The notes beneath the pieces were generated by a model, which had not been told where the DNA came from, ran no database searches, and was given only the letters and a program-made list of their open reading frames with translations. Positions 120 to 25,685 of a DNA stretch of 26,422 nucleotides are shown here, piece by piece (the stretch's first letter is position 1; each line of letters begins with the position of its first letter). This DNA is from Patescibacteria group bacterium. GTDB lineage: Bacteria > Patescibacteriota > Patescibacteriia > Magasanikbacterales > GWA2-37-8. The DNA lies in NCBI GenBank assembly GCA_004321885.1, contig SCQK01000016.1, positions 1 through 26,422 on the forward strand, in the 5' to 3' direction. Position numbers and translations under genes: made by a program.

Positions 120-851
120 TCATATTACATTGGTAAAAAAATCATCCACGTCATCATTCTCTTCCAAGGCAGCAAATAATTTTTCCAACTTCTGCCCGGT
201 CGCTTCGTCTACTTGCGCTCCGTCTTTCGCCACCCACCGCAACCCTGATTCCGCCGGTTCAATCCCCAACTCTTTAAGCGCGCCCAAAACTTTTTGAAAA
301 TTTTCCACTTTGGTTCTGATTTCCAAAATTTCTTCAGCGTCAACGATATCCTCGGCGCCCGCTTCAATCATTTTTAATTCAAAATCTTCGCGACTACCCC
401 CTCCTATCTCCCTCTTATCAAGGGGGAGGGAAATCACGCCCATCTGCGAAAACATCCAAAGCACACTGCCGGCGCCGGCCATGTTGCCGCCGCCGGCCGA
501 CAAAATTCTTTTCAAATCCGAAACCGTGCGGTTTTTGTTGTCGGTCAACGTTTTAATCAAAATTGCCACACCACCGGGGCCATAACCCTCGTATAACACC
601 TCCTCTATCTGCGCGCCTTCCAGCTCGCCGGCGCCGCGCTTGATGGCGCGCTCAATGTTGTCTTTGGGCATGCCAGCTTCTTTGGCTTTTTCAATGGCCA
701 GGCGCAAAGAAAAATTAGACGACGCGTCTCCGCCGCCGGAACGCGCGGCCACGCTTATGGCCTTGCCTATTTTGGTAAACAAATTTCCGCGCAAAGCGTC
801 TTGCTTGCCCTTGCGCGCCTGTATATTGTGCCACTTGGAATGTCCGCTCAT
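120..851 (-). CDS. yebC: YebC/PmpR family (DUF28/TACO1) transcriptional regulatory protein
   Basis: 243-aa ORF; N-terminus MSGHSKWHNIQARKGKQDALRGNLFTKIGKAI is the family signature start; length typical; one copy of the 38-bp repeat sits in-frame (encodes ...DKREIGGGSRED...). Confidence 0.92.
   Translation of the reverse strand: MSGHSKWHNIQARKGKQDALRGNLFTKIGKAISVAARSGGGDASSNFSLRLAIEKAKEAGMPKDNIERAIKRGAGELEGAQIEEVLYEGYGPGGVAILIKTLTDNKNRTVSDLKRILSAGGGNMAGAGSVLWMFSQMGVISLPLDKREIGGGSREDFELKMIEAGAEDIVDAEEILEIRTKVENFQKVLGALKELGIEPAESGLRWVAKDGAQVDEATGQKLEKLFAALEENDDVDDFFTNVI
393..430 (-). repeat. copy A of 38-bp GGGGGAGG palindromic repeat (reverse orientation), inside yebC
   Basis: ctaccccctcctatctccctcttatcaagggggaggg = reverse complement of the consensus cctcccc-ttgataa-gagggag-atagg-agggggtag. 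Confidence 0.75.
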
Positions 852-947: not shown

Positions 948-1628
948 CTAAATGTTCGGTTTGGGGACGCGCACGATGCGCGCGTCCATCTTTTCCAACT
1001 TTTTTTCTTTCTCGGCGCGCTGCGCCGGGTCAGTGCAGGCCAGTGCCTCCGACGCCAGCCGCGCCCGCTCCGAGGCCAGCGCCTCGGCCAGCACCGCCTG
1101 GGTGATGGCCTGGATGTGCTCGCCAGGCGTGCTGGCGCGCTTGGCCTTTTCGCGGAACGGAGCCGACGGCGACTCGTCGTCAACGCTGAACTCGGCCAGC
1201 GCCGCGTCCGACATCTCTGGCAGCTCAATGGTGCGCGCCGCTCGCGGAGTTGGCTCCGGCAACTCCGCCTTCACCGCCTGGTGCATGCCTGAGGCGCTGC
1301 GAACAGCCTGCATGCAGGCCTCGCCGATGGACGACGCGGTGTTCAGCCTCGGCTTGTTGACAGGCGGTGCCGCGACGCCGGGCGGGAACGGTATTTCCTC
1401 CAGCTTGGTCACCTTGACGGCGGCCAAACCGGCATCCCGCAGGGCCTGCTCCACCTCGCTCACAATGTGCCGTGAGCGACTGCCCAGGATGAGCCATGTC
1501 GGGCGGCGGAGCTTGATCCATTCCACCAAGCGCGGAACATCGACGTCCCGCACCACCACAACCCCGCTTTTGCACTCCTGGCACTCCATGTCGCCGACCT
1601 CACAGCCGACGACCATGAGCTTCTCCAT
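948..1628 (-). CDS. hypothetical protein (GC-rich; N-terminal Cys cluster C-x5-C-x2-C; Ala/Glu-rich low-complexity C-terminal half)
   Basis: 226-aa ORF, about 65% GC versus about 50% for flanks; start overlaps upstream gene stop by 1-2 nt (operon); shares a repeated segment with the upstream 106-aa protein (GVVVVRDVDVPRLVEWIKLRR vs RVVVVIELRTLEQMLERLRS). Confidence 0.55.
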   Translation of the reverse strand: MEKLMVVGCEVGDMECQECKSGVVVVRDVDVPRLVEWIKLRRPTWLILGSRSRHIVSEVEQALRDAGLAAVKVTKLEEIPFPPGVAAPPVNKPRLNTASSIGEACMQAVRSASGMHQAVKAELPEPTPRAARTIELPEMSDAALAEFSVDDESPSAPFREKAKRASTPGEHIQAITQAVLAEALASERARLASEALACTDPAQRAEKEKKLEKMDARIVRVPKPNI

Positions 1629-1629
1629 C

Positions 1630-1950
1630 TCAATTCCTCCCCGTGGCCTTGGCCACGTTGTTCGCGTTATTTGGAACCCTGTCGTCGAGACGCACCTTCA
1701 CGCTCCGGCGCTCCTCCAGCGTCAGGGCAGCGCGCACGTCGTCCACGCTGCAACCGGCGTCGCGTCCGACGATTATCTCGTTAAACGCGAGATACTTGAT
1801 GCTGCGCAACCGCTCCAGCATCTGCTCAAGCGTGCGCAACTCAATCACGACGACAACGCGATTTTCGCGCGAATCGCTGTGGTACTCCACTTCCCTGTCG
1901 TCGCCGACAAAACCGGCGACGAGCAGAATCCTTCTCACGCGGCGCGGCAT
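1630..1950 (-). CDS. hypothetical protein (GC-rich), first gene of a 2-gene unit
   Basis: 106-aa ORF with SD aaggagag 5 nt upstream of ATG and its own promoter; no family recognised. Confidence 0.55.
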   Translation of the reverse strand: MPRRVRRILLVAGFVGDDREVEYHSDSRENRVVVVIELRTLEQMLERLRSIKYLAFNEIIVGRDAGCSVDDVRAALTLEERRSVKVRLDDRVPNNANNVAKATGRN

Positions 1951-2032: not shown

Positions 2033-2060
2033 CTCATATTACTATATATATTTTACAAAG
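2033..2060 (-). promoter_or_regulatory. sigma70-like promoter for the GC-rich unit
   Basis: minus strand reads TTGACT - 17 nt - TAATAT, then about 75-nt leader with hairpins and SD before ATG at 1950. Confidence 0.5.
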
Positions 2061-2061
2061 T

Positions 2062-2121
2062 CAAGAGGGGTGGAGTAACAAAAGTCCTCCCCCTTTTAGG
2101 GGGAGGACAAAGGAGGGGGTA
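2062..2121 (-). terminator. rpoC intrinsic terminator formed by repeat copy B
   Basis: immediately after rpoC stop the minus-strand RNA folds CCUCCCCC-UAAAA-GGGGGAGG followed by ACUUUUGUU. Confidence 0.55.
2085..2121 (+). repeat. copy B of 38-bp GGGGGAGG palindromic repeat
   Basis: tcctccccc-tttta-gggggagg-acaaa-ggagggggta. Confidence 0.85.
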
Positions 2122-2122
2122 T

Positions 2123-5100
2123 TTATGGCTTGTACCCTGTCCCGGCCGGAATCAACCGCCCGATAATCACATTCTCTTTCAATCCTTCCAAATAGTCAAT
2201 CTTGCCGGTAATTGAAGTGTTAATCAAAACCTTGGCGGTTTCCTGAAACGACGCGGCCGACAAAAAGCTCTGGGTGGACAGGGCCACGCGGGAAATACCC
2301 AAAAACATCTCCCGTCCGGCGGCCGGCTTGCTCCCGTCTTTTTTCGCCTGGCGGTTGGAAAAATCCAACTGGGCTTTCTCCACCACTTCGCCGGGCAACA
2401 AATCAGTGTCGCCGGCGTCTTCCACATACACGCGGGAAAACATCTGGCGGATAATCAGCTCCACGTGCTTGTCGTTCACTTTCTGCCCCTGGGAAGAATA
2501 AATATTTTGCACCTCTTCCAATATATACCTCTGCACCGCCTCGCGGCCTTTGAGCTCAAACAACTGATGCAAGTTGATACTGCCGTCGGTCAGGCGCGCG
2601 CCCTTGGCCGCTTTATCGCCGCTTTTCACCATCAACTTATACCCCAAAGGTATGATATAATCGCGCACGTGCGGACCCTCGTAGGTCAGGGTAATCGTGC
2701 TCCGCTCAATTTTTACCGTCCCCGGGTACTTGGCCGCGATTTCCTCGCCCGACGAACCGCGCACCACCAGCACCTCGTCTTTTTTCACGACGGCCCCGTC
2801 TTTCACCAGCACCTCGTCTTCGGCCTTGGACTTTATTTTCATCTCATCCATGCCGGAAAAATGCACGTGCACTATTTTTTGCCCGCGCCGGCCTTCAAAA
2901 ATTTTCTTGCCCGTGGCCGAGGTGATAATCTTGCCGTCGGCTTCCTCAACTTCAATTTCCCCGTCCACTTCGGCCAGCACGGCCTGGCGCTTGGGCGCCC
3001 GCGCTTCAAACAATTCGTCCACGCGCGGCAAACCCTGGGTGATGTCGCTTTCGCTGGCAATGCCGCCGGTGTGAAAGGTTCTCATGGTGAGCTGGGTGCC
3101 GGGCTCGCCGATACTCTGCGCCGCCACAATGCCCACGGCTGTGCCAAATTCCACCGGCTTGTTGTGGCCCAAATCAAATCCGTAGCACTTGCGGCACACG
3201 CCTTTTTGCAAACGGCACTGCAATACACTGCGCACATGCGCCTCTTCAATCTTGGCTTCCTCTATGGCGCGCGCGGCCTTGTCATCTATCATTTCCCCGG
3301 CCTTCACCAGGGTTTTCCGGCCGTCTTTCACATCGGCCAGCACATACCGGCCCCACACGCGGTCCGACAGCTTCTCGCCCATTTCCTTGGACTGGGCCTG
3401 GGTAAAAATTTCCCCGTTCTTGTCGCCGCAGTCTTCTTCCAAAACCAGCACGTCCTGCGACACATCCACCAGACGGCGGGTAAGGTAGCCGGCGTTAGCC
3501 GTGCGCAGAGCCGTATCCGACAAGCCCTTGCGCGTGCCGTGCGAAGAGATAAAAAATTCCAGCACGTCAAAGCCTTCTTTGAAATTTGATTTCACCGGCA
3601 GTTCAATGGTCTCGCCCGAGGGAGACGCCACCAGGCCCTTCATGCCGATGACCTGGCCCAGCTGGCCCCAGGTGCCGCGGGCGCCAGAATCAATCATGGC
3701 ATACACCGGCCCGCCCGCGTCCAGGGCCTCTTGATTCTTGGCCACCACTTTGTTTTTGGTGTCGGCCCAAATTTCCAAAATTTTCACCAGACGCTCGGAT
3801 TGCGTGAGCAGGCCTTCCTGGTACTGCTGTTCCACCCTCTGCACTGCAACATCGGCCTCGCCGATGAGCTGGGGTTTTTCGGAAATACTGGGAAAATCAT
3901 CCATGCCCAAAGAATAGCCCGACTTGGTCACATAGCGATAGCCCATGTTTTTCAGGTTGTCCAAAAAGGCGGCCACTTCTTCGGCCGAGGGCAAAAGCTC
4001 CATGCACAGGCGGATGATGTGGCCCAATTTTTTCACGCCAATGGTCTCATTGAAGAAAGGCAGTTTTTCGGGCACCACCTGGTTAAACAAAATGCGTCCG
4101 ACCGAGGTTTCCACAAGGGCATTTTCTTCGGCGAATTTGGCATTGCCCGCGAATCGCACTTTAATTTTTTCCTGCAAGCCGATGAGGCGCGCTCTGTAGC
4201 CCCAGATGGCCTCTTTTTCCGAGCCGAAAAATTTCTTGGCCTCGGCTTTTTCGTTTTGCAGTCTGGTCAAATAATAACAGCCCAGGGCAATGTCTTGCTT
4301 GGGGGTAATCACCGGCGACCCGGTAGCGGGCTTAAGCAAATTGCGTTCGGCCGCCATCAGATTGTCGGCTTCCCAGCGGGCCTCGGCCGTGAGGGGCAGG
4401 TGCACGGCCATTTGGTCACCGTCAAAGTCCGCGTTAAAAGCCGTGCAAACCAGGGGGTGAAGCTGAATGGCCTTGCCTTCTATCAGCCGCGGATGAAAAG
4501 CCTGGATGCCCAGGCGGTGCAAAGTGGGCGCGCGGTTAAGCAACACGCGCGTTTTTTTGGTAAGCTCTTCCAGAATGTCCCAAACCTCGTCGTTTTCCGC
4601 TTCAATAAAACGCGAGGCGCTGCGGACGTTGTGCGCCAGTTCGCGCTTTATCACCTCGCTCATGATAAACGGCTTGAAGAGTTCCAAAGCCATGCGCTTG
4701 GGCAAACCGCATTCGTCCATATCCAGCTTGGGGCCCACCACGATGACCGAGCGGCCGCTGTAGTCCACGCGCTTGCCGAGCAAATTTTGGCGAAAGCGCC
4801 CCTGCTTGCCTTTCAAAATATCGGCCAAAGAGCGCAGCTGTCTTTTCTGCCCGGTGGAAGCCGTAACGGTTTTGGCATGGCGCGCGTTGTTGTCTATCAG
4901 GGCATCCACCGCTTCCTGTAACATGCGCTTTTCATTGCGGCAAATCACTTCGGGCGCGTCCAATTCCAGCAAACGGCGCAAACGGTTATTCCGGTTTATC
5001 ACGCGGCGATACAAATCATTCAAATCCGAGGTGGCGAAGCGACCGCCGTCAAGCGCCACCATGGGCCGCAAATCCGGCGGCACCACCGGAATATTCTGCA

Positions 5101-5995
5101 TAATCATCCACTCGGGACGAATGGCGTTGGAAGCAAAACTCTTCAGCACTTTTCTGCGGCGGATAATGCGCTCCAATTTTGACCCCTTGGACTTTTGCTG
5201 TTCCTCGGAAAGCTGTTTGATGGTTTCGGCCACGTTGATTCTCTCCAACAAATTGCGCACGGCCTCGGCGCCGATGCTGGCCTCAAAAATATGGCCGTAG
5301 CGCAAAGACAATTCCTGATATTTATTTTCGGAAATAATCCGCATCACCTGCAATTCCTTCAAATCCTTGTCAGCCTGTTGAAAATCCGCGTCCAGGGCCT
5401 CTAATTTGCGTCCGGCCTCTTTTTGAATTTTTTCTAAAACCGAGGCAGCCTGTTTTTTGTCATTGGCCTCGGCCATGGCTTTTTCCGCTTCCTTCTCAAT
5501 CTGCTTTTTCTTGCTTTTGTATTCCTGGCGCAATAAATCCGAGGCCTCTTTTTTCAAACTCTCATCCACGCGCGTAATGATAAAAGAAGCGAAGTAAATT
5601 ACTTTTTCCAGGGCCTGAGCCGACAAATCCAAAACCAAACCGACCTTGGACGGCACCGAGCGCAAAAACCAAATATGCGCCACCGGAGCCGACAATTCAA
5701 TGTGGCCCATGCGCTCGCGGCGCACCGAAGAATGGGTTACTTCCACGCCGCACTTATCGCAGATGATACCCTTGTAGCGAATTTTTTTGTATTTGCCACA
5801 ATAGCATTCCCAGTCTTTGGTGGGGCCGAAAATTTCCTCGGCGAAGAGCCCGCCTTTTTCCGGTTTTTGCGTGCGGTAATTGATGGTCTCGGGCTTGTGC
5901 ACGTCGCCAAACGACCACGAACGGATAACCTCGGGCGAAGCCAGTTTCAAACGAATGGCGTCAAAGTCAGCCAGGTGCAGGTTGTCTCTTTGCAT
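2123..5995 (-). CDS. rpoC: DNA-directed RNA polymerase subunit beta'
   Basis: NADFDGDQMAVHLP catalytic motif and zinc-binding Cys in N-terminus. Conserved N-terminus ADFDAIRLKLASPEVIRSWSFG begins right after the ATG at 5995. The ORF track extends to a TTG at 6064, which would overlap rpoB. Confidence 0.96.
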   Translation of the reverse strand: MQRDNLHLADFDAIRLKLASPEVIRSWSFGDVHKPETINYRTQKPEKGGLFAEEIFGPTKDWECYCGKYKKIRYKGIICDKCGVEVTHSSVRRERMGHIELSAPVAHIWFLRSVPSKVGLVLDLSAQALEKVIYFASFIITRVDESLKKEASDLLRQEYKSKKKQIEKEAEKAMAEANDKKQAASVLEKIQKEAGRKLEALDADFQQADKDLKELQVMRIISENKYQELSLRYGHIFEASIGAEAVRNLLERINVAETIKQLSEEQQKSKGSKLERIIRRRKVLKSFASNAIRPEWMIMQNIPVVPPDLRPMVALDGGRFATSDLNDLYRRVINRNNRLRRLLELDAPEVICRNEKRMLQEAVDALIDNNARHAKTVTASTGQKRQLRSLADILKGKQGRFRQNLLGKRVDYSGRSVIVVGPKLDMDECGLPKRMALELFKPFIMSEVIKRELAHNVRSASRFIEAENDEVWDILEELTKKTRVLLNRAPTLHRLGIQAFHPRLIEGKAIQLHPLVCTAFNADFDGDQMAVHLPLTAEARWEADNLMAAERNLLKPATGSPVITPKQDIALGCYYLTRLQNEKAEAKKFFGSEKEAIWGYRARLIGLQEKIKVRFAGNAKFAEENALVETSVGRILFNQVVPEKLPFFNETIGVKKLGHIIRLCMELLPSAEEVAAFLDNLKNMGYRYVTKSGYSLGMDDFPSISEKPQLIGEADVAVQRVEQQYQEGLLTQSERLVKILEIWADTKNKVVAKNQEALDAGGPVYAMIDSGARGTWGQLGQVIGMKGLVASPSGETIELPVKSNFKEGFDVLEFFISSHGTRKGLSDTALRTANAGYLTRRLVDVSQDVLVLEEDCGDKNGEIFTQAQSKEMGEKLSDRVWGRYVLADVKDGRKTLVKAGEMIDDKAARAIEEAKIEEAHVRSVLQCRLQKGVCRKCYGFDLGHNKPVEFGTAVGIVAAQSIGEPGTQLTMRTFHTGGIASESDITQGLPRVDELFEARAPKRQAVLAEVDGEIEVEEADGKIITSATGKKIFEGRRGQKIVHVHFSGMDEMKIKSKAEDEVLVKDGAVVKKDEVLVVRGSSGEEIAAKYPGTVKIERSTITLTYEGPHVRDYIIPLGYKLMVKSGDKAAKGARLTDGSINLHQLFELKGREAVQRYILEEVQNIYSSQGQKVNDKHVELIIRQMFSRVYVEDAGDTDLLPGEVVEKAQLDFSNRQAKKDGSKPAAGREMFLGISRVALSTQSFLSAASFQETAKVLINTSITGKIDYLEGLKENVIIGRLIPAGTGYKP

Positions 5996-6008
5996 AAAAG
6001 TATTGTCA

Positions 6009-9000
6009 TTATTTATTTTTTTCTTGAGTACTTTCCGCGAGTTCCTGCCTTTGCTTTTCCTCAAACGCCCGCACCTCTTCCACGGGCCGGTAATCGCCAG
6101 ACTCGCTGCGCTTCAGAAGTTCCACATCCAAACCCAGGCCTTTCAGTTCGCGCACCAAAACATTAAACGACTCGGGCAGATTCACGCGGCTGATGGGCTC
6201 GCCCTTAATAATGGCCTCGTAGGCCTTGGAACGGCCGGGCACATCATCGGATTTGATGGTCAAAATTTCCTGCAGGGTATGGGCCGCGCCATAGGCTTCC
6301 AAGGCCCACACTTCCATTTCGCCAAAGCGCTGGCCGCCGAACTGGGCTTTGCCGCCCAGGGGCTGCTGGGTAATCAAACTGTACGGCCCGATGGAGCGCT
6401 GATGGATTTTATCCTCCACCATGTGATTGAGTTTCAGCATATAGCTGTAGCCCACGGTAACTTTGTGGTCAAAGGCCTCGCCGGTGCGGCCGTCATAAAG
6501 AGCAACCTGTCCGCTGGCCGGCAGTCCGGCTTTGGCCAGCTCTTCTTTTATCTGTTCCTCGGAGAGGCCGCTTAGAACCGGCGTCGCTATTTTGTAGCCC
6601 AGGGCATTGGCCGCCAATCCCAAATGATTTTCCAAAAGCTGGCCCAGGTTCATGCGCGAGATAACGCCGAGCGGGGAAAGAATCACGTCAACCGAGGTGC
6701 CGTCTTCCAAAAACGGCATGTCTTCCGCCGGCACCACGCGCGAGATAACGCCCTTGTTGCCGTGGCGTCCGGCCATCTTGTCGCCCACCTGCACCTTGCG
6801 CATGTCAGCCACTTTCACCTGCACCTGCTTTATCACGCCAGGCTGCAATTTATCGCCGTTTTCCGCCGAGAAAATTTTAATGCCGATAACCTTGCCGTGC
6901 TCGCCGTGTTCCAAATACAAAGATGAATCGCGCACATCGCGGGCTTTTTCCCCAAAAATAGCGCGTAAGAGCCGCTCTTCGGCCGAAAGCTCGGTCTCGC
7001 CCTTGGGCGTGATTTTGCCGACCAGTATGTCGCCGGATTTTACCTCGGCGCCCACGCGCACAATGCCCTCGCTGTCCAAATTTTTCAATTTTTCCTCGCT
7101 GACATTGGGAATGTCCGAGGTGACGATTTCCGGGCCCAGCTTGGTCTCGCGCACGTCTATCACATAGTCTTCTATATGAATGGAAGTAAATCTGTCTTCT
7201 TCCACCACGCGCTCGGAAACAATGATGGCGTCTTCGTAGTTGAAGCCGTCCCACACCATATACGCTACCAGCATGTTTTGCCCGAGCGAAAGTTCGCCCT
7301 GGTTGATGCCCGGGCCGTCGGTTATGGCCTGGCCCTTCTTTACCTTGTCTCCCAAATTTACAGTCGGCATCTGATTCACGCAGGTGGAGGCGTTGCTACG
7401 CACGAACTTATTTAAAAAGTGAGTGTGCTTATTGCCTTTTTTGTCGGTGAGCACCACGTGTTTGCCGTCCATTTCCGTAATCTCGCCGTCGGCTTCGGCA
7501 ATCCTCATGTGCCCGCTGTCGTAGGCCGCGCGCGCTTCCACGCCCGTGCCCACCAGGGGCTGTTCGGGTTTGATGCAGGGCACGGCCTGTCTTTGCATGT
7601 TCGTGCCCATCAGGGCGCGGGTGGCATCGTCGTGCTCCAAAAAAGGAATGCAGGCCGTGGCAATGGAAATAATCTGACTGGAAGAAACATCTACATAATC
7701 AACCTCGCTGGTATGGGCAATGCCCGGATTGCCGTGAATGCGGGCCGGGGTCATTTCTTCCGTAAAATATCCGTCCGCGTCCAATTTTACTTTGGCAGAG
7801 GCGGTAATGGCTTTTTCTTCCCGGAAAGCATTAAGATAAACCACTTCGCTGGTCACGCGCGCTTTAAGCGGAACCTTCTTTTCTTTGCTTTTGGCCAGTT
7901 TGCGCGCGATGTCCTCGGTAATTTTTGTGCCGGCTTTTACGCCGCCAAAATCAGCGCCTAAAATTTCCCCCTCGGTGAAGCGCGGGTCGTTTTCCACTTC
8001 GCGCAAAACCTTGCGGTAGGGTGTTTCAATAAAACCAAAGTCATTGACGCGCGCGAAGCTGGAAAGATGATTTACCAGACCGATGTTCGGTCCTTCGGGA
8101 GTGGCAATAGGGCAGATGCGGCCATAGTGGGTGGCGTGCACGTCGCGCACCTCAAAGCCGGCGCGGTCGCGCGAAAGTCCGCCCGGGCCCAGGGCCGACA
8201 CGCGGCGCTTGTGTTCCAATTCGGAGAGCGGATTGGTCTGGTCCATGAACTGCGAAAGCTGGGAACTCATGAAAAATTCGCGGATGGCCGATATCACGGG
8301 CCGCGCGTTGATAAGCTTGTTGGGTGTGAGCTGGTCAAGCTCTTGGGTGCTCATGCGGTCTTTGATAATGCGCTCCATGCGGGTAAGGCCCACGCGGAAA
8401 CGATTTTGCGCCAGCTCGCCCACGGCCCGGATGCGTCGGTTGCCCAGATGGTCAATATCATCAGGCTCTTCCTGGGTCACGTTCAGGCGCACCACTTCTT
8501 TCAAAACCAAGAGTAGCTTTTCCGGCGACAGCACGCGGTTTTCTTTTTTGTCAAAATCATCGGGCCCATAGCCCAAATCAAATTTGGTATTGAATTTGTA
8601 AACACCCACGCGCCCCAAATCATAACGGTCAAAATTGAAAAACATGGCGTAAATCAAACTCTTGGCATTATCGGCCGTGGCCAGGTCGCCCGGCCTGATT
8701 CTTTTATATACCTCAATCAAGCCTTCATCCGCGTTGGCGGCCAAATCCTTTTTTATGGTCGCGTCAACATAATCCACGCTCGGATGATTGTTCACATCTT
8801 TGAAAGCGCTGACCAGTTCCTCGCTCGCGCCCATGCCAAAAGCGCGCAGGAGCGAGGTGGCGGCCACTTTGCGCTTGCGGTCCACTTTTACCCAGACTGC
8901 GTTGTTCATATCGGTTTCAATTTCAATCCAGGCCCCGCGGTTTGGTATGATTTTAGCGCCATAATAGCGGCGGCCGCGGATGTTCTCGGCCGTGAAAAAA

Positions 9001-11269: not shown

Positions 11270-11312
11270 TTGAAACAAAAAACATCCCGACTAAGTCGGG
11301 ATGTTTTATTAT
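11270..11312. terminator. bidirectional intrinsic terminator hairpin
   Basis: A-run, stem aacatcccg/cgggatgtt with loop actaagt, T-run. Confidence 0.4.
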
Positions 11313-11607: not shown

Positions 11608-11636
11608 TTGACAAATTATTGTGTATAGTGTATAAT
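11608..11636 (+). promoter_or_regulatory. consensus sigma70 promoter of the wHTH-GHKL gene
   Basis: TTGACA(11608-13) - 17 nt - TATAAT(11631-36); ATG at 11657 gives a very short leader without SD. Confidence 0.7.
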
Positions 11637-11654
11637 ATATATACATTATACACT
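11627..11654 (+). promoter_or_regulatory. perfect 10-bp inverted repeat (operator-like) overlapping the -10 and the start of transcription
   Basis: AGTGTATAAT-atatatac-ATTATACACT, ending 2 nt before the ATG. Confidence 0.55.
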
Positions 11655-11656
11655 AT

Positions 11657-12424
11657 ATGAAAACGGCTACACAAAGCCAAATTCTAAATTACATACGCTC
11701 AAAAAAAGGTGCGGGGGCGCGTGAGATAATAAAACAAACCGGCAAGTACCCCACCGGTATTTTTCGCCATCTCAAAAATTTGCTGGCGGCAAACAAAATT
11801 TATAAGATTGGCAATATGCCCAGAGCGAGGTATTATGCCTTTGTTGAAAATACTAATATGACAAGCGAAAATCTTGCCAAGGCCATAAATTGGGCCGCGA
11901 CAGGTGATAGTAATTTAGTTACGCCCGATATTTTGTGCCAAACCCGCGATGTTTTCCAGGCGCGCGCGGATCATCTCGCCAAAGATTTAAAGCGAATAAT
12001 CAAAGACGATGACCTGATTTATCTTTTGATAGCCGCCGCTGATGAAATTGGAAACAATTCTTTTGATCATAATATTGGCCGCTGGCAGGATGTCCCCGGC
12101 GTGTTTTTTCAAATGAAAGAAGGTGAACGCGAAATGATTTTTGCCGACCGCGGACAAGGCGTGTTGGCCACCATCAGCGGAGTCAGACCTGATATTAAAG
12201 GTTCTGCCGACGCTTTGCGGGTAGCATTCACCGAGATTATTTCCGGCCGCGCGCCCGAGAAAAGAGGCAACGGACTTAAACTTGTGAAAAAAATAATCGT
12301 GGAAAATAATTTGTATCTAGAATTTTATAGCGGCAACGCCAAGGCAGTAATAGAAACGCCGGATTTAAGGATAGAAAAATCTGAAATAAACATAACAGGA
12401 ACTGTCGTGTATCTTAAATTTTAA
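11657..12424 (+). CDS. winged-helix DNA-binding domain fused to GHKL (HATPase_c) ATPase, RsbW/SpoIIAB-like
   Basis: N-terminal wHTH-like segment (QILNYIRSKKGAGAREIIKQTG...IFRHLKNLLAANKIYKIG); C-terminal N-box AADEIGNNSFDHN, G1 box ADRGQG, G2 box GNGLKLV. Confidence 0.75.
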   Translation: MKTATQSQILNYIRSKKGAGAREIIKQTGKYPTGIFRHLKNLLAANKIYKIGNMPRARYYAFVENTNMTSENLAKAINWAATGDSNLVTPDILCQTRDVFQARADHLAKDLKRIIKDDDLIYLLIAAADEIGNNSFDHNIGRWQDVPGVFFQMKEGEREMIFADRGQGVLATISGVRPDIKGSADALRVAFTEIISGRAPEKRGNGLKLVKKIIVENNLYLEFYSGNAKAVIETPDLRIEKSEINITGTVVYLKF

Positions 12425-12788: not shown

Positions 12789-13010
12789 CGGATAATTTTT
12801 CTTCAATAACTTTCTCTGCACCGAGCTGCGCAAGAGTCGATGTCTTGACCGGATCGGATTTTTTGGAAACAATCTCTCTCCTCTCCTGAACTTACTTTTT
12901 AGTATGTTCGGAGAGCGTTTTCAAAATTCGGTTCGTAAGCTAAAACATGCGCCTCTTGCCGCAGCTCGGTGCAGAGAAAAAAAACAGCGCGCCGTTGGCG
13001 CGCCTTTTTT
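12789..13010 (+). ncRNA. candidate structured small RNA (unknown family; 6S-like closing stem)
   Basis: promoter at 12754-81, a 23/24-bp long-range stem (12814-12836 pairs with 12953-12976) enclosing about 115 nt with internal hairpins, then a rho-independent terminator; no ORF with SD in the interval. Confidence 0.3.
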
Positions 13011-13014
13011 GTTT
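12977..13014. terminator. bidirectional intrinsic terminator
   Basis: aaaaaaaaca - GCGCGCC gtt GGCGCGC - cttttttgttt. Confidence 0.65.
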
Positions 13015-13032
13015 ATGATATAATTATGAAAT

Positions 13033-15336
13033 ATGCCCCGACCTCGCATATACAGGCGAACGCACAAACCTCGCTTTAGTTTGAATCTCAATCCCGACAT
13101 CAGCCGCGGGCTGATTTCCATTTTCCTCTTTATCGTGGGCGGGGTATCGGCGCTGGCCTTTTTCCACCTGGCCGGCGTGGCCGGCGAATTCATAGATTCG
13201 CTTCTCGCCATTTCTTTCGGCCAGGTGCGCTATGTTTTTCCCATCATTCTCATCTTGGTCGGCATCCTCACCCTCAAAGATTTGCGTTACGAATACCGGC
13301 CCACGCACTGGCTGGGCTCCCTGCTTTTCTTTTTAAGCTTCAACGCCCTGGTGCATCTGCAAACACCTGTTTTGGAAATGAAAGACACTGCCCTGCAAGG
13401 CTATGGCGGCGGGCTGGTCGGGTTGGCGCTGGCCTGGCCCCTCGCGACCTATGTGGGCTATTGGGGCGGATTGGTTATTTTAATCGGTCTTGTGCTGGCC
13501 TCGGTAATTTTCCTGTTCAACACCTCGCTGGCGCGCATCGTGGGCCTGCATCGTCAATTTTTTTTCGTGCTGGGCTGGTTTGGCCGGCAGGTCATCGCTT
13601 TTTTCGCCCTTTTCAAAAGACCGGCCAGGGTAAAATTTAAAATCAACGGCGAATACGAAGAACAAAACGAGGAAGAAGCAGAAGACGAAACACAACCAGA
13701 CCCGGAAGATGAAAAAAGGATATTCAAACAGCGCGTCATTGCCAAGCAAGAAGAAAACGAGGTCATCTCGGCTGAAAAAGAAAAAACTGAAGAAAAAATG
13801 GAAGTGACTAGGCCCAAGCCGGTTATTCGCGATTTGCCGCCTCTGAACTTATTATATATTTCCAAAAGCAAACCCACTTCGGGCGACATAAAAAGCAACG
13901 CTGAGGTTATCCGCGACACTTTATTCAATTTCGGCATGGAAGTTGAGATGGGCGAGGTGCGCGTGGGTCCGACTGTTACGCAATATTCCCTTAAACCGGC
14001 CAAAGGCATCAAGCTGAATCGCATTACCGCCTTGAGTAATGACTTGGCTTTGGCTTTAGCCGCCCACCCCATTCGCATTGAGGCCCCTATCCCGGGCAAA
14101 TCACTGGTGGGCATTGAAGTGCCAAATCAAAAAGTGGCTATGGTTACTTTGCGCGAACTGCTGGAAAGCCAGGAATACAAAGCCAGCGATAACCCCATGA
14201 AAATCGCCTTAGGCAAAGACGTGGCCGGCAAGGTCTGGTTCGGCGACTTGCCCAAAATGCCCCACTTGCTCATTGCTGGCGCCACGGGCTCAGGCAAAAC
14301 TGTGTGCATCAACACCATTTTGCTTTCTTTACTTTACCAAAACACGGCCGAAACCCTGCGCCTTATAATGGTAGACCCGAAACGGGTGGAGCTCACCATG
14401 TACAACGGCATTCCGCACCTGCTCACGCCGGTAATCACCGACGCGGCTAAAACCGTAAACGCCTTAAAGTGGACCATCGGCGAAATGGACCGGCGCTTTA
14501 CGCTTTTATCCGAGAGCGGAAATCGCGATATCAATTCCTACAATCGCACGGCCGATGAGCCTTTGCCTCACATTATCTTTGCCATAGACGAGCTGGCCGA
14601 CCTGATGGCCATGGCCGCCAGCGACGTGGAAGCCGGCATCATCCGCATCGCCCAGATGGCGCGCGCCGTGGGCATCCACTTGCTGGTGGCCACCCAGCGC
14701 CCGAGCGTGGAAGTCATCACCGGCCTGATGAAAGCCAATATTCCGGCGCGCATAGCGTTTTCAGTGGCAAGCCTCATTGACTCGCGCACCATCCTTGACT
14801 GCCCGGGCGCGGAAAAATTGCTCGGCCGCGGCGACATGCTGTTTTTAACCGCCGAACTCACCAAGCCCAAACGTTTGCAGGGCGCCTTTGTGTCCGAAGA
14901 AGAAATGAAACGGGTGATAGACCACTTAAAAGGCGACGAGCCGCCGGTTTACGACGACTCCATTGTTTCCAAAAACGCCGAAGTTAAATTCGGAAGCACG
15001 GTAAACATGTTCGGCGGTCCGGGCGACGATGTTGACCCGCTTTTTGAAGACGCCAAAAAAATCGTGCTTGATTCGGGCAAAGCCAGCGCCTCGCTTTTGC
15101 AAAGATTTTTGAAACTGGGCTATGCCCGCGCCGCGCGCCTGCTTGACCAATTGGAAGAAGCTGGTATAGTAGGGCCGGCCGACGGCGCCAAACCGCGCGA
15201 GGTCTTTGGGGAATATTTTTCGGCCGAAAGCGAACTGCCTGAACCAATTGAGAAACCGGAACCGGACAAAGAACTGCCGGCCGAAGAACAAACCATGGAC
15301 GCGGGCGGGACCGTGTTTGACGAAGAAACAAAATAA
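13033..15336 (+). CDS. ftsK: DNA translocase FtsK/SpoIIIE
   Basis: 767 aa; N-terminal TM helices, Walker A GATGSGKT, VATQRPSVEVITG, C-terminal gamma wHTH (SASLLQRFLKLGYARAARLLDQLEEAGIVGP). Confidence 0.95.
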   Translation: MPRPRIYRRTHKPRFSLNLNPDISRGLISIFLFIVGGVSALAFFHLAGVAGEFIDSLLAISFGQVRYVFPIILILVGILTLKDLRYEYRPTHWLGSLLFFLSFNALVHLQTPVLEMKDTALQGYGGGLVGLALAWPLATYVGYWGGLVILIGLVLASVIFLFNTSLARIVGLHRQFFFVLGWFGRQVIAFFALFKRPARVKFKINGEYEEQNEEEAEDETQPDPEDEKRIFKQRVIAKQEENEVISAEKEKTEEKMEVTRPKPVIRDLPPLNLLYISKSKPTSGDIKSNAEVIRDTLFNFGMEVEMGEVRVGPTVTQYSLKPAKGIKLNRITALSNDLALALAAHPIRIEAPIPGKSLVGIEVPNQKVAMVTLRELLESQEYKASDNPMKIALGKDVAGKVWFGDLPKMPHLLIAGATGSGKTVCINTILLSLLYQNTAETLRLIMVDPKRVELTMYNGIPHLLTPVITDAAKTVNALKWTIGEMDRRFTLLSESGNRDINSYNRTADEPLPHIIFAIDELADLMAMAASDVEAGIIRIAQMARAVGIHLLVATQRPSVEVITGLMKANIPARIAFSVASLIDSRTILDCPGAEKLLGRGDMLFLTAELTKPKRLQGAFVSEEEMKRVIDHLKGDEPPVYDDSIVSKNAEVKFGSTVNMFGGPGDDVDPLFEDAKKIVLDSGKASASLLQRFLKLGYARAARLLDQLEEAGIVGPADGAKPREVFGEYFSAESELPEPIEKPEPDKELPAEEQTMDAGGTVFDEETK

Positions 15337-15349
15337 TACCCCTGCCCAG

Positions 15350-15388
15350 CCTTCCCCTTGTTTAAGGGGGAGGAACAGGAGGGGGTAA
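15350..15388 (+). repeat. copy C of 38-bp repeat; its 3' GGAGG serves as SD of the next gene
   Basis: ccttcccc-ttgttta-agggggagg-aacag-gagggggta followed by aactATG. Confidence 0.85.
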
Positions 15389-15391
15389 ACT

Positions 15392-16069
15392 ATGGCGATT
15401 TTTTGCCGCAAAAAAATGGAGCCCCCGCGCACCGCCAGCGCCGCCCTCAAAAAAGCGCGCGCCGACAGACAGCTTTCTTTGGAGGCCGTCGCCGCGCAAA
15501 CTCACATCGCCATTAAATACCTGGAAGCCATTGAAAACAACGACTGCGACGCCCTGCCCCAAACCAAAGCTCACTGTCTGGCCTATGTACGCTCGTTTGC
15601 CGCGGCCGTGGGCCTTAATCCCGACGCGCTGACGCGCAAATTTGACAAAGAAGCCAATTTGGAAAATTTATCTGCGGTCCATCCGGCCAAACATTTAAAA
15701 ATTAAAAGCGGCGCCATCAGCATGCTGGCCAAAGCCGCCGTAGCCGGCGCCATGGTCTTGGCCGTGCTGGGTTATTTGAGCTGGCAGATATACGGCATTC
15801 TCCAACCGCCCAAACTATCCGTGCATTCGCCGGCCGAAGGCATGATTACTGGCCAGCTTTCCATAATAGTCAAAGGCGAAACCCAAAAAGAAATCAAACT
15901 CACCGTAAACGGACAGGAAATAATGGTAAGCGAGCAGGGAATCTTTGAAGCGCCCGTGGACTTGTCAAACGGGCTTAACACCATTAATATAGTGGCTACC
16001 AAAAAGCACGGCAAAACGACCACGGTAACGCGACATGTGATAGTGAATTCTCTCGGTTTTAGAAATTAA
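15392..16069 (+). CDS. rodZ: RodZ-like cytoskeleton protein (XRE-type HTH, TM segment, DUF4115-like C-terminal domain)
   Basis: [33 protein letters not shown]; [21 protein letters not shown]; beta-rich C-terminus; AGGAGG 9 nt upstream of ATG. Confidence 0.65.
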
Positions 16070-17656: not shown

Positions 17657-17692
17657 AACAAAAACAACCCCGACTAAGTCAGGGTTGTTTTT
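17657..17692. terminator. bidirectional terminator downstream of the tRNA cluster
   Basis: aaaaacaaccc-cgactaagtca-gggttgttttt. Confidence 0.5.
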
Positions 17693-17693
17693 G

Positions 17694-17767
17694 TCGGGCT
17701 GGTGGGACTCGGACCCACGACCTTCTGCTCCCAAAGCAGACGCGCTAGCCAACTGCGCTACAGCCCG
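17694..17767 (-). tRNA. tRNA-Pro (anticodon TGG)
   Basis: hand-folded cloverleaf: acceptor CGGGCTG/CAGCCCG, D-stem GCGC, anticodon stem TCTGC/GCAGA with loop TTTGGGA, T-arm GTGGG-TCCGAGT-CCCAC; no encoded CCA. Confidence 0.85.
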
Positions 17768-17802
17768 TTTTTGAACGCCCGCTGTTTAAAGCGGGCGTTA
17801 AG

Positions 17803-17874
17803 TGCCGAGGGCGAGGATCGAACTCGCGACGCATAGATTTTCAGTCTATCGCTCTACCACTGAGCTACCTCGGC
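17803..17874 (-). tRNA. tRNA-Phe (anticodon GAA)
   Basis: GCCGAGG-TA-GCTC-AGTGGTA-GAGC-G-ATAGA-CTGAAAA-TCTAT-GCGTC-GCGAG-TTCGATC-CTCGC-CCTCGGC-A. Confidence 0.85.
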
Positions 17875-17891
17875 TATTTTGTTTGGACCCG

Positions 17892-17965
17892 TGGACCCGG
17901 GCGGAGTCGAACCGCCGACCTCCACATTGCAAATGTGGCATTCTATCCAGCTGAACTACGGGCCC
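17892..17965 (-). tRNA. tRNA-Cys (anticodon GCA)
   Basis: GGGCCCG-TA-GTTC-AGCTGGATA-GAAT-G-CCACA-TTTGCAA-TGTGG-AGGTC-GGCGG-TTCGACT-CCGCC-CGGGTCC-A. Confidence 0.85.
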
Positions 17966-20056: not shown

Positions 20057-21287
20057 AACTTAAAATTATCCAAAACATCATGGCTAAATCGTTTTTGAAG
20101 TAGGGCGCGTCCACCAGCCCGTGCACAAACACGGCGGCCAGAGCCGCGAGCGCGCCGGTGGCCATTATTCCGCCATTCTTCTTTAATATATATGCTGCCG
20201 ACCCCAGCAAGGCAAAAAACGACAGCATGCCGGCCAACCCGGTTTCGGTCCAAAAATTGAGCGCGATGTTGTGCGGATAAATCAAACGCTCCATTTCTTT
20301 GGAATTGTAATGCGGCTTTTGAATTTTTCTGAAAAACTGCCGTATGCCCGCGCCCAAAATAAAATTCCTGGGCGAAGCGGATAAAAACTGCCAAGAATAA
20401 CTCCACAACACCAGCCGATTTTGCCCGGATTTATCCTGCAAAAGCAGTGCGCTTTTCATCCCCGGCGCAAACAGGCAGGCAATAACCGCGACAATTAAAA
20501 CCGCGGCCGCGATTTTTCTATAACCGATTAAAAATATATAAACTATGGAAGCGGCCAGCAGCGCCAGCCAGGCCCCGCGCGAAAAAGAAAAAAACAAGGC
20601 CGCGATAGCGAGCAGAAAAAACAAAAGAGGGAAAAATCGCTTCAAGTTTCCTCCCCTTAATAAGGGGGGGATTAAGGAGGGGTAGACAAAAGACAAGCCA
20701 AGCACCAGTGTCGGAACCAAATATAACCCAAGGGCGTTGGGCGAAGTAAAAAAAGAAGTAACTCGGCCGCGCAAATCATCATCCCACAGGCTGGGCGGAT
20801 AATAGGCAGGGTCAAACTTCTGCCAAAGCGCCAGAATGCTTACGGCCGCGGTGGAATAAAGCAGATACTTCGCCAGATTTTCTGCGCCGATTTCTTTGCG
20901 CCGGCCCACCAGAATAAAAAACACCAGCATCGGCTCCAAAAAATACGCCCGCCACTGGCCCAGCGAGGCCACCGCCATATCGCTGACAAAAATGGAGATA
21001 ACCGACGAGATAAAAAAAACACCGATGGCGCCGGCCAAAATTTTATGCTCAAAAATAAAATTTTTAATTTCCGCGCAGTCGCGGCGCGCGTGTTTTGTCA
21101 GCCAAACCAAAAACAGGGCGCCAAAAGTGATTTCCAAAAGAGTGGTGGGCAAACCGAATAATTTGAAACGTATTAAATACGCCGGCAAAAGCAAAATCAA
21201 AAACATCAAACCCAGCCGGAAGTTTTTCCAGGCAAGCAAACAAAAGACAAAAAAATATAAAATGACAAGCGCAAACATAGCTACCAC
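19989..21287 (-). CDS. O-antigen ligase (Wzy_C/WaaL) family membrane protein
   Basis: 432 aa, about 10-12 TM; FSFSRGAWLALLAASIVYIF and PHNIALNFWTETGLAGML motifs; carries repeat copy D in-frame (YPSLIPPLLRGGNLKRFF); 3' end overlaps the DUF167 ORF by about 60 nt. Confidence 0.8.
   Translation of the reverse strand: MVAMFALVILYFFVFCLLAWKNFRLGLMFLILLLPAYLIRFKLFGLPTTLLEITFGALFLVWLTKHARRDCAEIKNFIFEHKILAGAIGVFFISSVISIFVSDMAVASLGQWRAYFLEPMLVFFILVGRRKEIGAENLAKYLLYSTAAVSILALWQKFDPAYYPPSLWDDDLRGRVTSFFTSPNALGLYLVPTLVLGLSFVYPSLIPPLLRGGNLKRFFPLLFFLLAIAALFFSFSRGAWLALLAASIVYIFLIGYRKIAAAVLIVAVIACLFAPGMKSALLLQDKSGQNRLVLWSYSWQFLSASPRNFILGAGIRQFFRKIQKPHYNSKEMERLIYPHNIALNFWTETGLAGMLSFFALLGSAAYILKKNGGIMATGALAALAAVFVHGLVDAPYFKNDLAMMFWIILSFVAYARVRESETIVRAGASGKN
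20648..20684 (+). repeat. copy D of 38-bp repeat inside the O-antigen ligase gene
   Basis: ttcctcccc-ttaataa-ggggggg-attaa-ggaggggtag. Confidence 0.8.
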
Positions 21288-25615: not shown

Positions 25616-25634
25616 ATTAAAAAATTATGCTTAC

Positions 25635-25685
25635 ATTATATTACCCCTTGCTATTCTTGACAACACCGTTATTCTCATATTAAAT
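25635..25685. promoter_or_regulatory. divergent promoter pair sharing a TTGTCAAGAA/TTCTTGACAA -35 region
   Basis: plus: TTGACA(25657-62) - 17 nt - TTAAAT; minus: TTGTCA - 17 nt - TATAAT (25635-40) driving the LTD gene. Confidence 0.5.

Follow-up and report, generated by a model that had tools for sequence, protein, structure and literature searches.

An intrastrand triplex-type repeat dispersed through a Patescibacteria contig, with two intergenic copies as candidate terminator and candidate Shine-Dalgarno donor

The 26,422-nt contig SCQK01000016.1 (assembly GCA_004321885.1), which was analyzed over its whole length and is called the window below, belongs to a metagenome-assembled genome (MAG) deposited at NCBI as "Patescibacteria group bacterium." It carries a dispersed repeat of ~36 nt in six canonical copies and one interrupted copy. 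Judged by its sequence, this repeat is very probably a class II purine-motif intrastrand triplex motif of the TM family (BoxC/PIT/TM). The explanation that we favor as a whole, and consider probable, is that a TM-family repeat spread through the genome and that two of its intergenic copies, one past rpoC and one between ftsK and a rodZ-like gene, were co-opted. An earlier note on the window had described two copies, at 2085 to 2120 and 15350 to 15387, as a portable hairpin of Shine-Dalgarno (SD) and anti-SD sequences that acts as a terminator in one place and donates a ribosome-binding site (RBS) in another. Both copies are present, together with five more. What the note observed was largely right, exceeds chance, and is confirmed in part; its interpretation is right in part for the two local roles and wrong on the nature of the element.

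RESULTS

Anatomy and identity of the repeat

The family pattern CCCCTT N2-5 AGGGG N10-14 GGGGTA has six matches in the window and none in 100 shuffles of it, and copy 3 is matched on both strands. The repeat consists of a pyrimidine (Y) arm, a loop of 3 to 4 nt, the purine (R) complement, a second loop of 3 to 4 nt, and a mirror arm of G, A, and T. Every copy has a 3' tail in which the hairpin's purine arm is mirrored (purine arm and tail: GGGGGAGG and GGAGGGGG; GGGGAGAG and GAGAGGGG; GGGGAAGG and GGATGGGG). Mirror symmetry is irrelevant to Watson-Crick pairing but is required by a purine-motif triple helix, in which a G/A/T third strand runs antiparallel to the duplex's purine strand and makes G.GC, A.AT, and T.AT triads. 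As single-stranded DNA (ssDNA), the repeat would fold twice into these triads.

Motifs of this kind were sought with a triad finder that required the order Y arm, loop, R arm, loop, third arm, with Watson-Crick pairing between the Y and R arms and G.G, A.A, or T.A third-strand contacts. For class II, eight or more legal triads (C-G.G, T-A.A, T-A.T) had to follow one another, one mismatch at most being allowed, and loops had to measure 1 to 6 nt. The finder returned exactly the six canonical copies and nothing else, with 9 to 10 triads and at most one mismatch in each, compared to a mean of 0.03 matches in 30 dinucleotide-preserving shuffles of the window. Copies 2 and 5 are perfect (10/10 triads). 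Copy 7 conforms as to its triads but has a first loop of 23 nt; the one-strand domain order of a class II motif is present in this copy as in the six canonical ones (Table 1). Lone G-rich pieces that resemble third arms adjoin full copies on the plus strand (AGAGGGGTGGAGTA, 2064 to 2077; GGATTGGGGTA, 24930 to 24942; AAGGGGTGGGGTAA, 25001 to 25015), and they may be remnants of partial or decayed copies. At Rfam gathering thresholds, the window and seven repeat-bearing loci yielded only tRNAs and one L10 leader, none of them at the repeat, and a search of the full-text literature for the literal repeat sequences gave no relevant match.

What had been read as "anti-SD," "paired SD," and "free SD" are the pyrimidine, purine, and reverse-Hoogsteen arms, which resemble SD and anti-SD sequences because purine-motif arms are rich in G and A. 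The claim that each unit contains CCUCC, GGAGG, and a second GGAGG is true of copy 2 alone (CCTCC at 2086 to 2090, GGAGG at 2102 to 2106 and 2112 to 2116). Copy 3 has CCUUCC, one or two of the motifs are missing from copies 1, 4, and 6, and GGAGG is wholly absent from copy 5 (arms CTCTCCCCTT, AAGGGGAGAG, and GAGAGGGGTA). GGAGG is not enriched in the window either (41 counted, 44.7 expected).

A G-quadruplex (G4) is a different structure for which the element might have been selected, with four G-tracts, contributed by purine arm and tail, in competition with the hairpin. Four tracts of three or more G's are indeed present in AAGGGGAGGGTTAGGGTGGGG, the consensus in other phyla. The canonical G4 pattern (four such tracts, loops of 1 to 7 nt), by contrast, occurs only at 24978 to 25006 and 25056 to 25077, around copies 6 and 7; copies 1 to 5 fail it, and copy 5 (GGGGAGAG TTA GAGAGGGG) has two G-tracts only. 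Arm classes such as GGGGGAGA/AGAGGGGG and GGGGAGAGA/AGAGAGGGG are unable to form an intramolecular G4 and yet have perfect triad symmetry. Because most copies fail the pattern while keeping that symmetry, we reject G4 formation as the shared property and regard selection for it as highly improbable, even though G4 formation has been called conceivable for the TMECO elements of Escherichia coli (Holder et al. 2015, NAR 43:10126, PMC4666352).

Table 1. Repeat copies and associated features of the window
Feature	Position	Strand	Description
Copy 1	395-428	-	Canonical; in frame within yebC
Copy 2	2085-2120	+	Y arm TCCTCCCCCT 2085-2094; loop TTT; R arm AGGGGGAGGA 2098-2107; loop CAA; reverse-Hoogsteen arm AGGAGGGGGT 2111-2120
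Copy 3, palindromic form	15337-15387 (canonical unit 15350-15387)	+	Occupies the ftsK-rodZ gap; extra C-rich arm TACCCCTGCC 15337-15346; Y arm 15350-15359; loop GTTT; R arm 15364-15373; loop AACA; reverse-Hoogsteen arm GGAGGGGGTA 15378-15387
Copy 4	20649-20684	+	Antisense and in frame within Wzy_C O-antigen-ligase-like gene
Copy 5	23896-23931	+	10/10 triads, without GGAGG; antisense and in frame within LTD/PKD gene
Copy 6	24963-24998	+	Antisense and in frame within LTD/PKD gene
Copy 7	25025-25076	+	8 perfect triads; loop 1 enlarged to 23 nt with nested hairpin; same LTD linker as copy 6
Promoter-like site TTGACT-17-TAATAT	2036-2064	-	Downstream of the putative terminator
U-tract UUUUGUU	2077-2083	-	Directly 3' of the hairpin, in the flank outside the repeat
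Putative rpoC terminator hairpin	2084-2108	-	Copy 2 Y and R arms on the rpoC strand, GUCCUCCCCC-UAAAA-GGGGGAGGAC
rpoC	2123-6064	-	Stop codon TAA 2123-2125, one or two nt from the end of the repeat
SD-like AGGAGG	15377-15382	+	Part of copy 3's third arm; 9-nt spacer to the ATG at 15392
rodZ-like gene	15392-16069	+	HTH_25 and Glucodextran_B domains

Most copies lie in frame within genes

Intact open reading frames (ORFs) host five of the seven copies in frame, in both orientations and in different frames. None of these ORFs is thrown out of frame, and homology or Pfam domains flank the copies on either side. Copy 1 encodes residues ~141 to 153 of YebC (peptide SLPLDKREIGGGS); the loop that holds them is variable in length, with 9 to 16 residues in relatives. 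Copy 4 encodes the peptide YPSLIPPLLRGGN, which falls in a loop of the Wzy_C protein with poor conservation, and copies 5, 6, and 7 fall in interdomain linkers of the LTD/PKD protein, that of copy 6 being rich in Pro, Ser, and Thr. PSQPSPYQGEG is an example of a peptide encoded by an intragenic repeat.

The closest homologs of the host genes are 67% (YebC), 47% (Wzy), and at most 48% (LTD) identical. Because these homologs are distant and the host loops and linkers vary, the intragenic copies can be described only as lying in a variable loop or linker and not as net insertions. In 191 kb of related contigs there are four G/C-rich motifs only, none at an orthologous site, and therefore the family expanded in this lineage. 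A homologous LTD gene in another Patescibacteria genome (GCA_028688375.1, contig JAQTYG010000003.1; L206:11140-11174) has a class II motif of its own in a linker. The arms of this independent copy (CCTCTCCTT, AAGGAGAGG, and GGTGAGGTA) differ from those in the window, form nine perfect triads, and encode ...PQPSPYKGEE...; it is the sole such motif in 23 kb. In the explanation that we favor, the repeat would have spread through the Patescibacteria genome represented by the window, with most copies accommodated in frame in tolerant loops and linkers.

The copy past rpoC resembles an intrinsic terminator

From the rpoC stop codon, the minus-strand transcript runs UAA-AUACCCCCUCCUUU-GUCCUCCCCCUAAAAGGGGGAGGAC-UUUUGUUAC. 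On the rpoC strand, copy 2 folds into a hairpin of -21.8 kcal/mol (11 bp, 8 of them G-C, with a 3-nt loop) that starts 15 nt past the stop codon and is followed by UUUUGUU, as the earlier note had seen. This combination of a stable G+C-rich hairpin and a U-rich tract past a stop codon is the top terminator-like site of a 20-kb scan, and copy 2 alone among the window copies has an A-tract 5' of its Y arm. Since the U-tract lies in the flank, the terminator would be a composite of a repeat-derived hairpin and a host-derived U-tract.

Orthologous loci were fetched via YebC (at most 67% identity), and in ten of them rpoC lies directly upstream of yebC. In seven of the ten, an unrelated hairpin (-10.6 to -18.2 kcal/mol) with a U-tract starts 10 to 22 nt past the rpoC stop codon, and a promoter-like sequence comes next; an eighth has a hairpin with a weaker U-tract. 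In the remaining two, rpoC and yebC nearly abut, with gaps of 25 nt (L121) and 8 nt (L125) and no terminator. Given the terminators in relatives, the window hairpin at +15, and the promoter-like sequence after it, a terminator would belong at this position in the lineage, with its stem in the window supplied by the repeat. The minus-strand Y-R hairpin and its flanking U-tract would thus act as an intrinsic terminator after rpoC, a role that the sequence and the comparison with relatives make likely. On the opposite side, the E. coli PIT elements showed no promoter or terminator activity (PMC4666352); this negative result is not directly applicable here because those elements have no U-tract. 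Complementary to the third arm, a C-rich stretch lies 5' of the hairpin in the rpoC mRNA; by symmetry, a pyrimidine-motif (class IV) triple could in principle form with it, which would need cytosine protonation.

Two ORFan genes (106 and 226 aa; 948 to 1950, minus strand) occupy a stretch of ~1.2 kb between rpoC and yebC that adjoins copy 2; in L121, L123, L125, L127, and L128, the rpoC-yebC gap is 8 to 140 nt. Both ORFans have GGAGG-type SDs, and neither has a Pfam or NCBIfam match. The TTGACT-17-TAATAT site, judged by its sequence, would drive these genes (1950 to 1630 and 1628 to 948). As a single case, the ORFan stretch beside copy 2 agrees with the published association of triplex motifs with local rearrangement.

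The copy between ftsK and the rodZ-like gene may supply a Shine-Dalgarno sequence

Copy 3 fills the gap between ftsK and the rodZ-like gene, TAA|TACCCCTGCCCAGCCTTCCCCTTGTTTAAGGGGGAGGAACAGGAGGGGGTAAACT|ATG, and has no U-tract, as the earlier note had stated. The TAA...TAA flanks of this long form raised the idea of a TA target-site duplication, as in an IS630/mariner-type miniature inverted-repeat transposable element (MITE), which was dropped since the short forms have no left TA. The start codon at 15392 is correct, because the N terminus MAIFCRKK is kept in homologs as the pattern MA(I/V/F)FC(R/L)K; the NCBI protein has the same 225 aa. The same rodZ-like protein was found elsewhere in a single 1.4-kb Logan contig. 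A perfect 20-nt inverted repeat (TTTCTCTGCACCGAGCTGCG and CGCAGCTCGGTGCAGAGAAA, 12811 to 12830 and 12960 to 12979, 129 nt apart) lies upstream of ftsK.

The order ftsK, rodZ-like gene, recA is conserved in relatives, in which the ftsK-rodZ junction measures 4 nt (L203), 23 nt (L204 and L205), or 27 nt (L202). L201, the closest relative (66% identity in the rodZ-like protein), is a Logan contig whose first 21 bases are an Illumina adapter (AGACGTGTGCTCTTCCGATCT) and thus nongenomic, the end of ftsK being cut off there; the 16 nt kept upstream of its ATG, AAAACAAATCTTAACT, resemble the window flanks minus the repeat. Neither the repeat nor GGAGG occurs at the junction in L201 to L205; L203 has AAGGAG 13 nt upstream, inside ftsK. 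Since the junctions of relatives are short and free of the repeat, the 51-nt palindromic repeat is therefore an insertion between stop and start codon. It enlarges the gap to 55 nt and supplies the only SD-like sequence at the conserved start, AGGAGG within the usual 5 to 10 nt of the start codon. The claims that a GGAGG lies 9 nt before the ATG and is the only SD candidate of the gene thus stand.

The GGAGG is not predicted to be free, however. In the predicted fold, the 3' GGAGG of copy 3 (15378 to 15382) pairs with UACCCCUGCC, which begins directly after the ftsK stop codon, and the 86-nt ftsK-rodZ context has a fold z-score of -4.0. The strand predicted to mask the SD is the extra upstream C-rich arm at 15337 to 15346 and not the CCUCC arm of the stem. 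Keeping the 10 to 13 nt past the ftsK UAA open, as under a terminating ribosome, raises P(unpaired) of the SD to 0.55 to 0.97.

These data suggest a sequence of events in which palindromic copy 3 would have been inserted into a short ftsK-rodZ junction, disrupting tight coupling, and would have been tolerated as it carries an SD of its own, AGGAGG, which the third arm sets at a distance of 9 nt from the conserved start codon. The C-rich arm right after the ftsK stop codon would mask this SD in free mRNA, and a ribosome terminating on ftsK would open it, preserving translational coupling. That copy 3 supplies the SD for the rodZ-like gene is, from its sequence, a proposition with about even chances, and unmasking of this SD by ftsK translation is a tentative suggestion that draws on the folding model.

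Several points count against these proposals. P(unpaired) is only 0.00 to 0.15 for the four SD guanines in free mRNA, and the SD lies inside a full palindrome that folds at -31.2 kcal/mol. GGAGG-type SDs occur at mgtC, nudix, and both ORFans (~5 of 18 genes inspected overall), which favors an SD role, but SD use is mixed, with none at yebC, rpoB, ftsK, recA, or the LTD gene. Because many window genes have no SD, rodZ may not need one. The anti-SD sequence was assumed, the 16S rRNA lying outside the window. The order of insertion followed by co-option is one that we infer, because the relatives are distant (YebC at most 67%, rodZ-like protein 66%).

Both intergenic copies might also be passive passengers, the end of the rpoC transcript being independent of the repeat and rodZ being translated by coupling or reinitiation without the GGAGG. 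The inactivity of E. coli PIT elements as terminators or promoters, the terminator-free rpoC-yebC gaps of L121 and L125, the many genes without an SD, and the predicted burial of the copy 3 SD all agree with passenger status. It accounts poorly for a textbook hairpin plus UUUUGUU where seven relatives have a terminator, with a promoter-like site after it, for a strong AGGAGG at workable spacing, and for a 51-nt insertion and a 55-nt gap that should weaken SD-independent coupling. Passenger status of both copies is therefore rather unlikely compared to the co-option that we favor.

The element in other genomes

A species-representative genome collection (596 Gb) was scanned with a loose pattern, which gave at least 119 loci, a sample rather than a census. 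Among the matches listed, the hosts are cyanobacteria (Nostoc, Microcoleus, Pseudanabaena, and Chamaesiphon), Gallionella, Sideroxydans, and other Nitrosomonadales (including Gallionellaceae), Nitrospirae, Dehalococcoidia, Devosia (Alphaproteobacteria), Saccharibacteria, Elusimicrobia, and other groups. At the four triad positions left free by the pattern, 3.19 of 4 are legal, compared to 2.07 when third arms are permuted among sequences (maximum 2.38 in 2,000 permutations). At least seven distinct compensated arm classes (Y/R/third) occur in the matches listed: CCCT/AGGG/GGGT, CTTC/GAAG/GATG, CCTC/GAGG/GGAG or GGTG, CTCT/AGAG/GAGA, TCTC/GAGA/AGAG, CTCC/GGAG/GTGG, and TCCC/GGGA/AGGG. To judge from these sequences, seven or more compensated classes are hard to explain without a triad constraint.

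Copies elsewhere are mostly intergenic, an ORF of at least 150 aa covering 30% of them versus 80% of random positions. They do not share the regulatory placements seen in the window. An ORF of at least 80 aa starts at SD distance (4 to 12 nt past the G-run) in 4 of 123 copies elsewhere and in 4 at a control offset, and an A-rich tract of the terminator type precedes the pyrimidine arm in 5 of 123. Donation of regulatory parts is not a family property; local reuse would be opportunistic and not the purpose of the repeat.

The earlier note read the element as a portable regulatory cassette with the anti-SD/SD hairpin as its purpose, one that donates terminators and RBSs to its neighbors and has its SD tuned by its own CCUCC arm. 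The motif set and terminator-like look of copy 2, the SD of copy 3 at 9 nt, and the GGAGG-type SDs of other window genes are what one would expect of such a cassette, and the comparative evidence upholds the two local roles. A portable module is nonetheless improbable. Besides the 123-copy comparison, the full motif set occurs in one of seven copies and not at all in copy 5, five of seven copies lie inside ORFs, and the T-tract is outside the repeat. The CCUCC arm pairs with the stem GGAGG and not with the 3' GGAGG, and the conserved constraint is a mirror symmetry that SD function leaves unexplained.

Inverted doublets 20 to 55 nt apart occur in Nostoc and Gallionellaceae genomes (L007, L034, L045, L062, L065, L067, L113, and L120). 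The two copies of a doublet differ in arm variant, for example, GGGGAGGG/GGGTGGGG with GGGGGG/GGGGGGG. In Nostoc, the 5' flank GAAACAAGAAAATCYAGTT is also conserved, and so the unit is longer there. The doublets recall the pairs of type A and type B elements in E. coli as well as the doublets (REPINs) of repetitive extragenic palindromic (REP) sequences, and the repeat could be a REP/REPIN palindrome mobilized by a REP-associated tyrosine transposase (RAYT, Y1), in which only hairpin and tag matter and the likeness to a triplex is incidental. The copies are indeed short, dispersed, palindromic, and often close to stop codons, and many end in ...GGGGTAG; REPs inside genes are documented as well (PMC3733652). 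REPs, by contrast, do not feature mirror covariation between third arm and purine arm, and the GTA(G) stands at the far end of a 13-nt tail, not beside the hairpin. There is no transposase-like gene within the window, and clustering of all ORFs of at least 110 aa around the at least 119 loci revealed no recurrent neighbor gene family. Holder et al. likewise saw no association of TMECO with mobile elements (PMC4666352). A REP origin is accordingly unlikely, if marginally less so than the cassette, and we retain the assignment to the TM family.

Other features of the window

A second, unrelated pair of hairpins, AACAAAAAACATCCCGACTAAGTCGGGATGTTTT (11274 to 11307) and AACAAAAACAACCCCGACTAAGTCAGGGTTGTTT (17657 to 17690), looks like bidirectional terminators and may represent a further small repeat family. 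Between mgtC and a 556-aa coiled-coil-like ORF are three consecutive tRNA genes (17694 to 17965, minus strand). TATAAT-like boxes lie ~10 to 25 nt from the ATG, without an SD, at ftsK (13003 to 13035), the LTD gene (25616 to 25645, minus strand), and orf255 (11627 to 11659), and their sequence suggests leaderless or very short-leader mRNAs.

DISCUSSION

Several observations weigh against the assignment to the TM family or against its consequences. The triplex of the window copies is a prediction from sequence, and in vivo dimethyl sulfate (DMS) footprinting in E. coli detected no stable triplex (PMC4666352). The arms in the window are of the CCTCCCC type (TCCTCCCCCT, CCTTCCCCTT, CTCTCCCCTT) rather than CCCTCNCCC, so that the strict TMECO consensus is absent, and TMECO is always intergenic (PMC4666352), compared to five of seven window copies in ORFs. 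The 596-Gb collection is large enough for chance matches to a loose pattern, and kinship among sequences inflates covariation statistics.

A further-reaching view is that triplex-motif repeats in Patescibacteria are actively spreading and routinely enter coding sequences in frame, where they feed new peptide loops, terminators, and RBSs into the genome, and that the ssDNA triplex is the selected intermediate of a transposase-independent copying process. The five in-frame copies and the independent copy in the LTD linker of L206 are consistent with spreading; if that reading were true, the three-way arm covariation across at least six phyla would point to the triplex as the selected intermediate. 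We regard this view as speculative and rather unlikely to be correct in full.

Replacing the label of an SD/anti-SD switch by the correct family avoids misannotation of the element as a regulatory RNA. It also extends BoxC/PIT/TM-type motifs to a genome of the candidate phyla radiation (CPR), in which they are dense and, unlike those of E. coli, mostly intragenic. What is new here is the CPR host, the density of seven copies per 26 kb, the mainly intragenic placement, and two plausible co-options. The rpoC and ftsK-rodZ copies are testable cases in which a structure-prone selfish repeat would have been co-opted as a terminator and an RBS. Covariation of the third arm across phyla is evolutionary evidence, independent of biophysics, for selection on triad geometry, and it bears on the question of intrastrand triplexes in vivo.

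Comparison with known systems

Intrastrand triplex motifs were first seen in E. coli as BoxC and were rediscovered in 2000 as PIT by Hoyne, Maher et al. (Holder et al. 2015, PMC4666352). The TMECO consensus is CCCTCNCCC N3-6 GGGNGAGGG N3 GGGNGAGGG, with CCCTCGCCCCTTTGGGGAGAGGGTTAGGGTGAGGGG as an example; the element is ~36 nt long, often has TTA as its second loop, and occurs in 23 copies in MG1655, five sites being inverted pairs (PMC4666352). TMECO oligonucleotides fold into a triplex in vitro, purine-motif triplexes are unable to form in RNA, and TMECO is associated with locally raised genome rearrangement (PMC4666352). Triplex motifs rich in G/C are especially abundant in Enterobacteria and cyanobacteria (PMC4666352).

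The window repeat shares with BoxC/PIT/TM the three-arm order on one strand, arms of 9 to 10 nt, loops of 3 to 4 nt, and a length of ~36 nt, as well as its dispersal, a frequency far above that of scrambled sequence, palindromic or inverted-pair forms, and occurrence in cyanobacteria, in which the class is known to be abundant. The second loop of copies 4 and 5 is TTA, as in TMECO type A. The density differs roughly fifty-fold, with 7 copies per 26 kb in the CPR MAG and 23 per 4.6 Mb in MG1655, and PIT has no terminator activity, whereas one window copy has a U-tract and is terminator-like. Because the architecture is shared and the consensus unmet, we file the repeat as a new sequence subfamily and not as TMECO proper. 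Compared to ordinary intrinsic terminators, the rpoC copy is alike in stem, loop, and UUUUGUU and unlike in drawing its stem from a dispersed repeat.

Rickettsia palindromic elements (RPE) are Rickettsia-specific repeats of ~100 to 150 bp that add peptide segments in permissive regions of proteins. The window repeat resembles them as a palindromic repeat in frame in protein genes and differs in its unit of ~36 nt (12 codons) and its triplex type. RPE have been mentioned among the repeats that are tolerated in genes (PMC3733652). REP sequences, bacterial interspersed mosaic elements (BIMEs), and REPINs are short dispersed palindromes, often just past stop codons, sometimes in inverted doublets and occasionally in genes, and REP-type elements can act on mRNA 3' ends (PMC3733652, PMC3116915). 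The window repeat departs from them in a third arm that covaries with the stem, in having no GTAG/CGTC tag beside the hairpin, and in that no RAYT was seen in the window. MITEs such as Correia/NEMIS, ERIC, and RUP happen to supply terminators, promoters, and RNA structures to their neighbors (PMC3733652, PMC4666352). They are 70 to 300 bp long, with terminal inverted repeats and known transposase families, whereas the element in the window is far shorter and its reuse looks sporadic.

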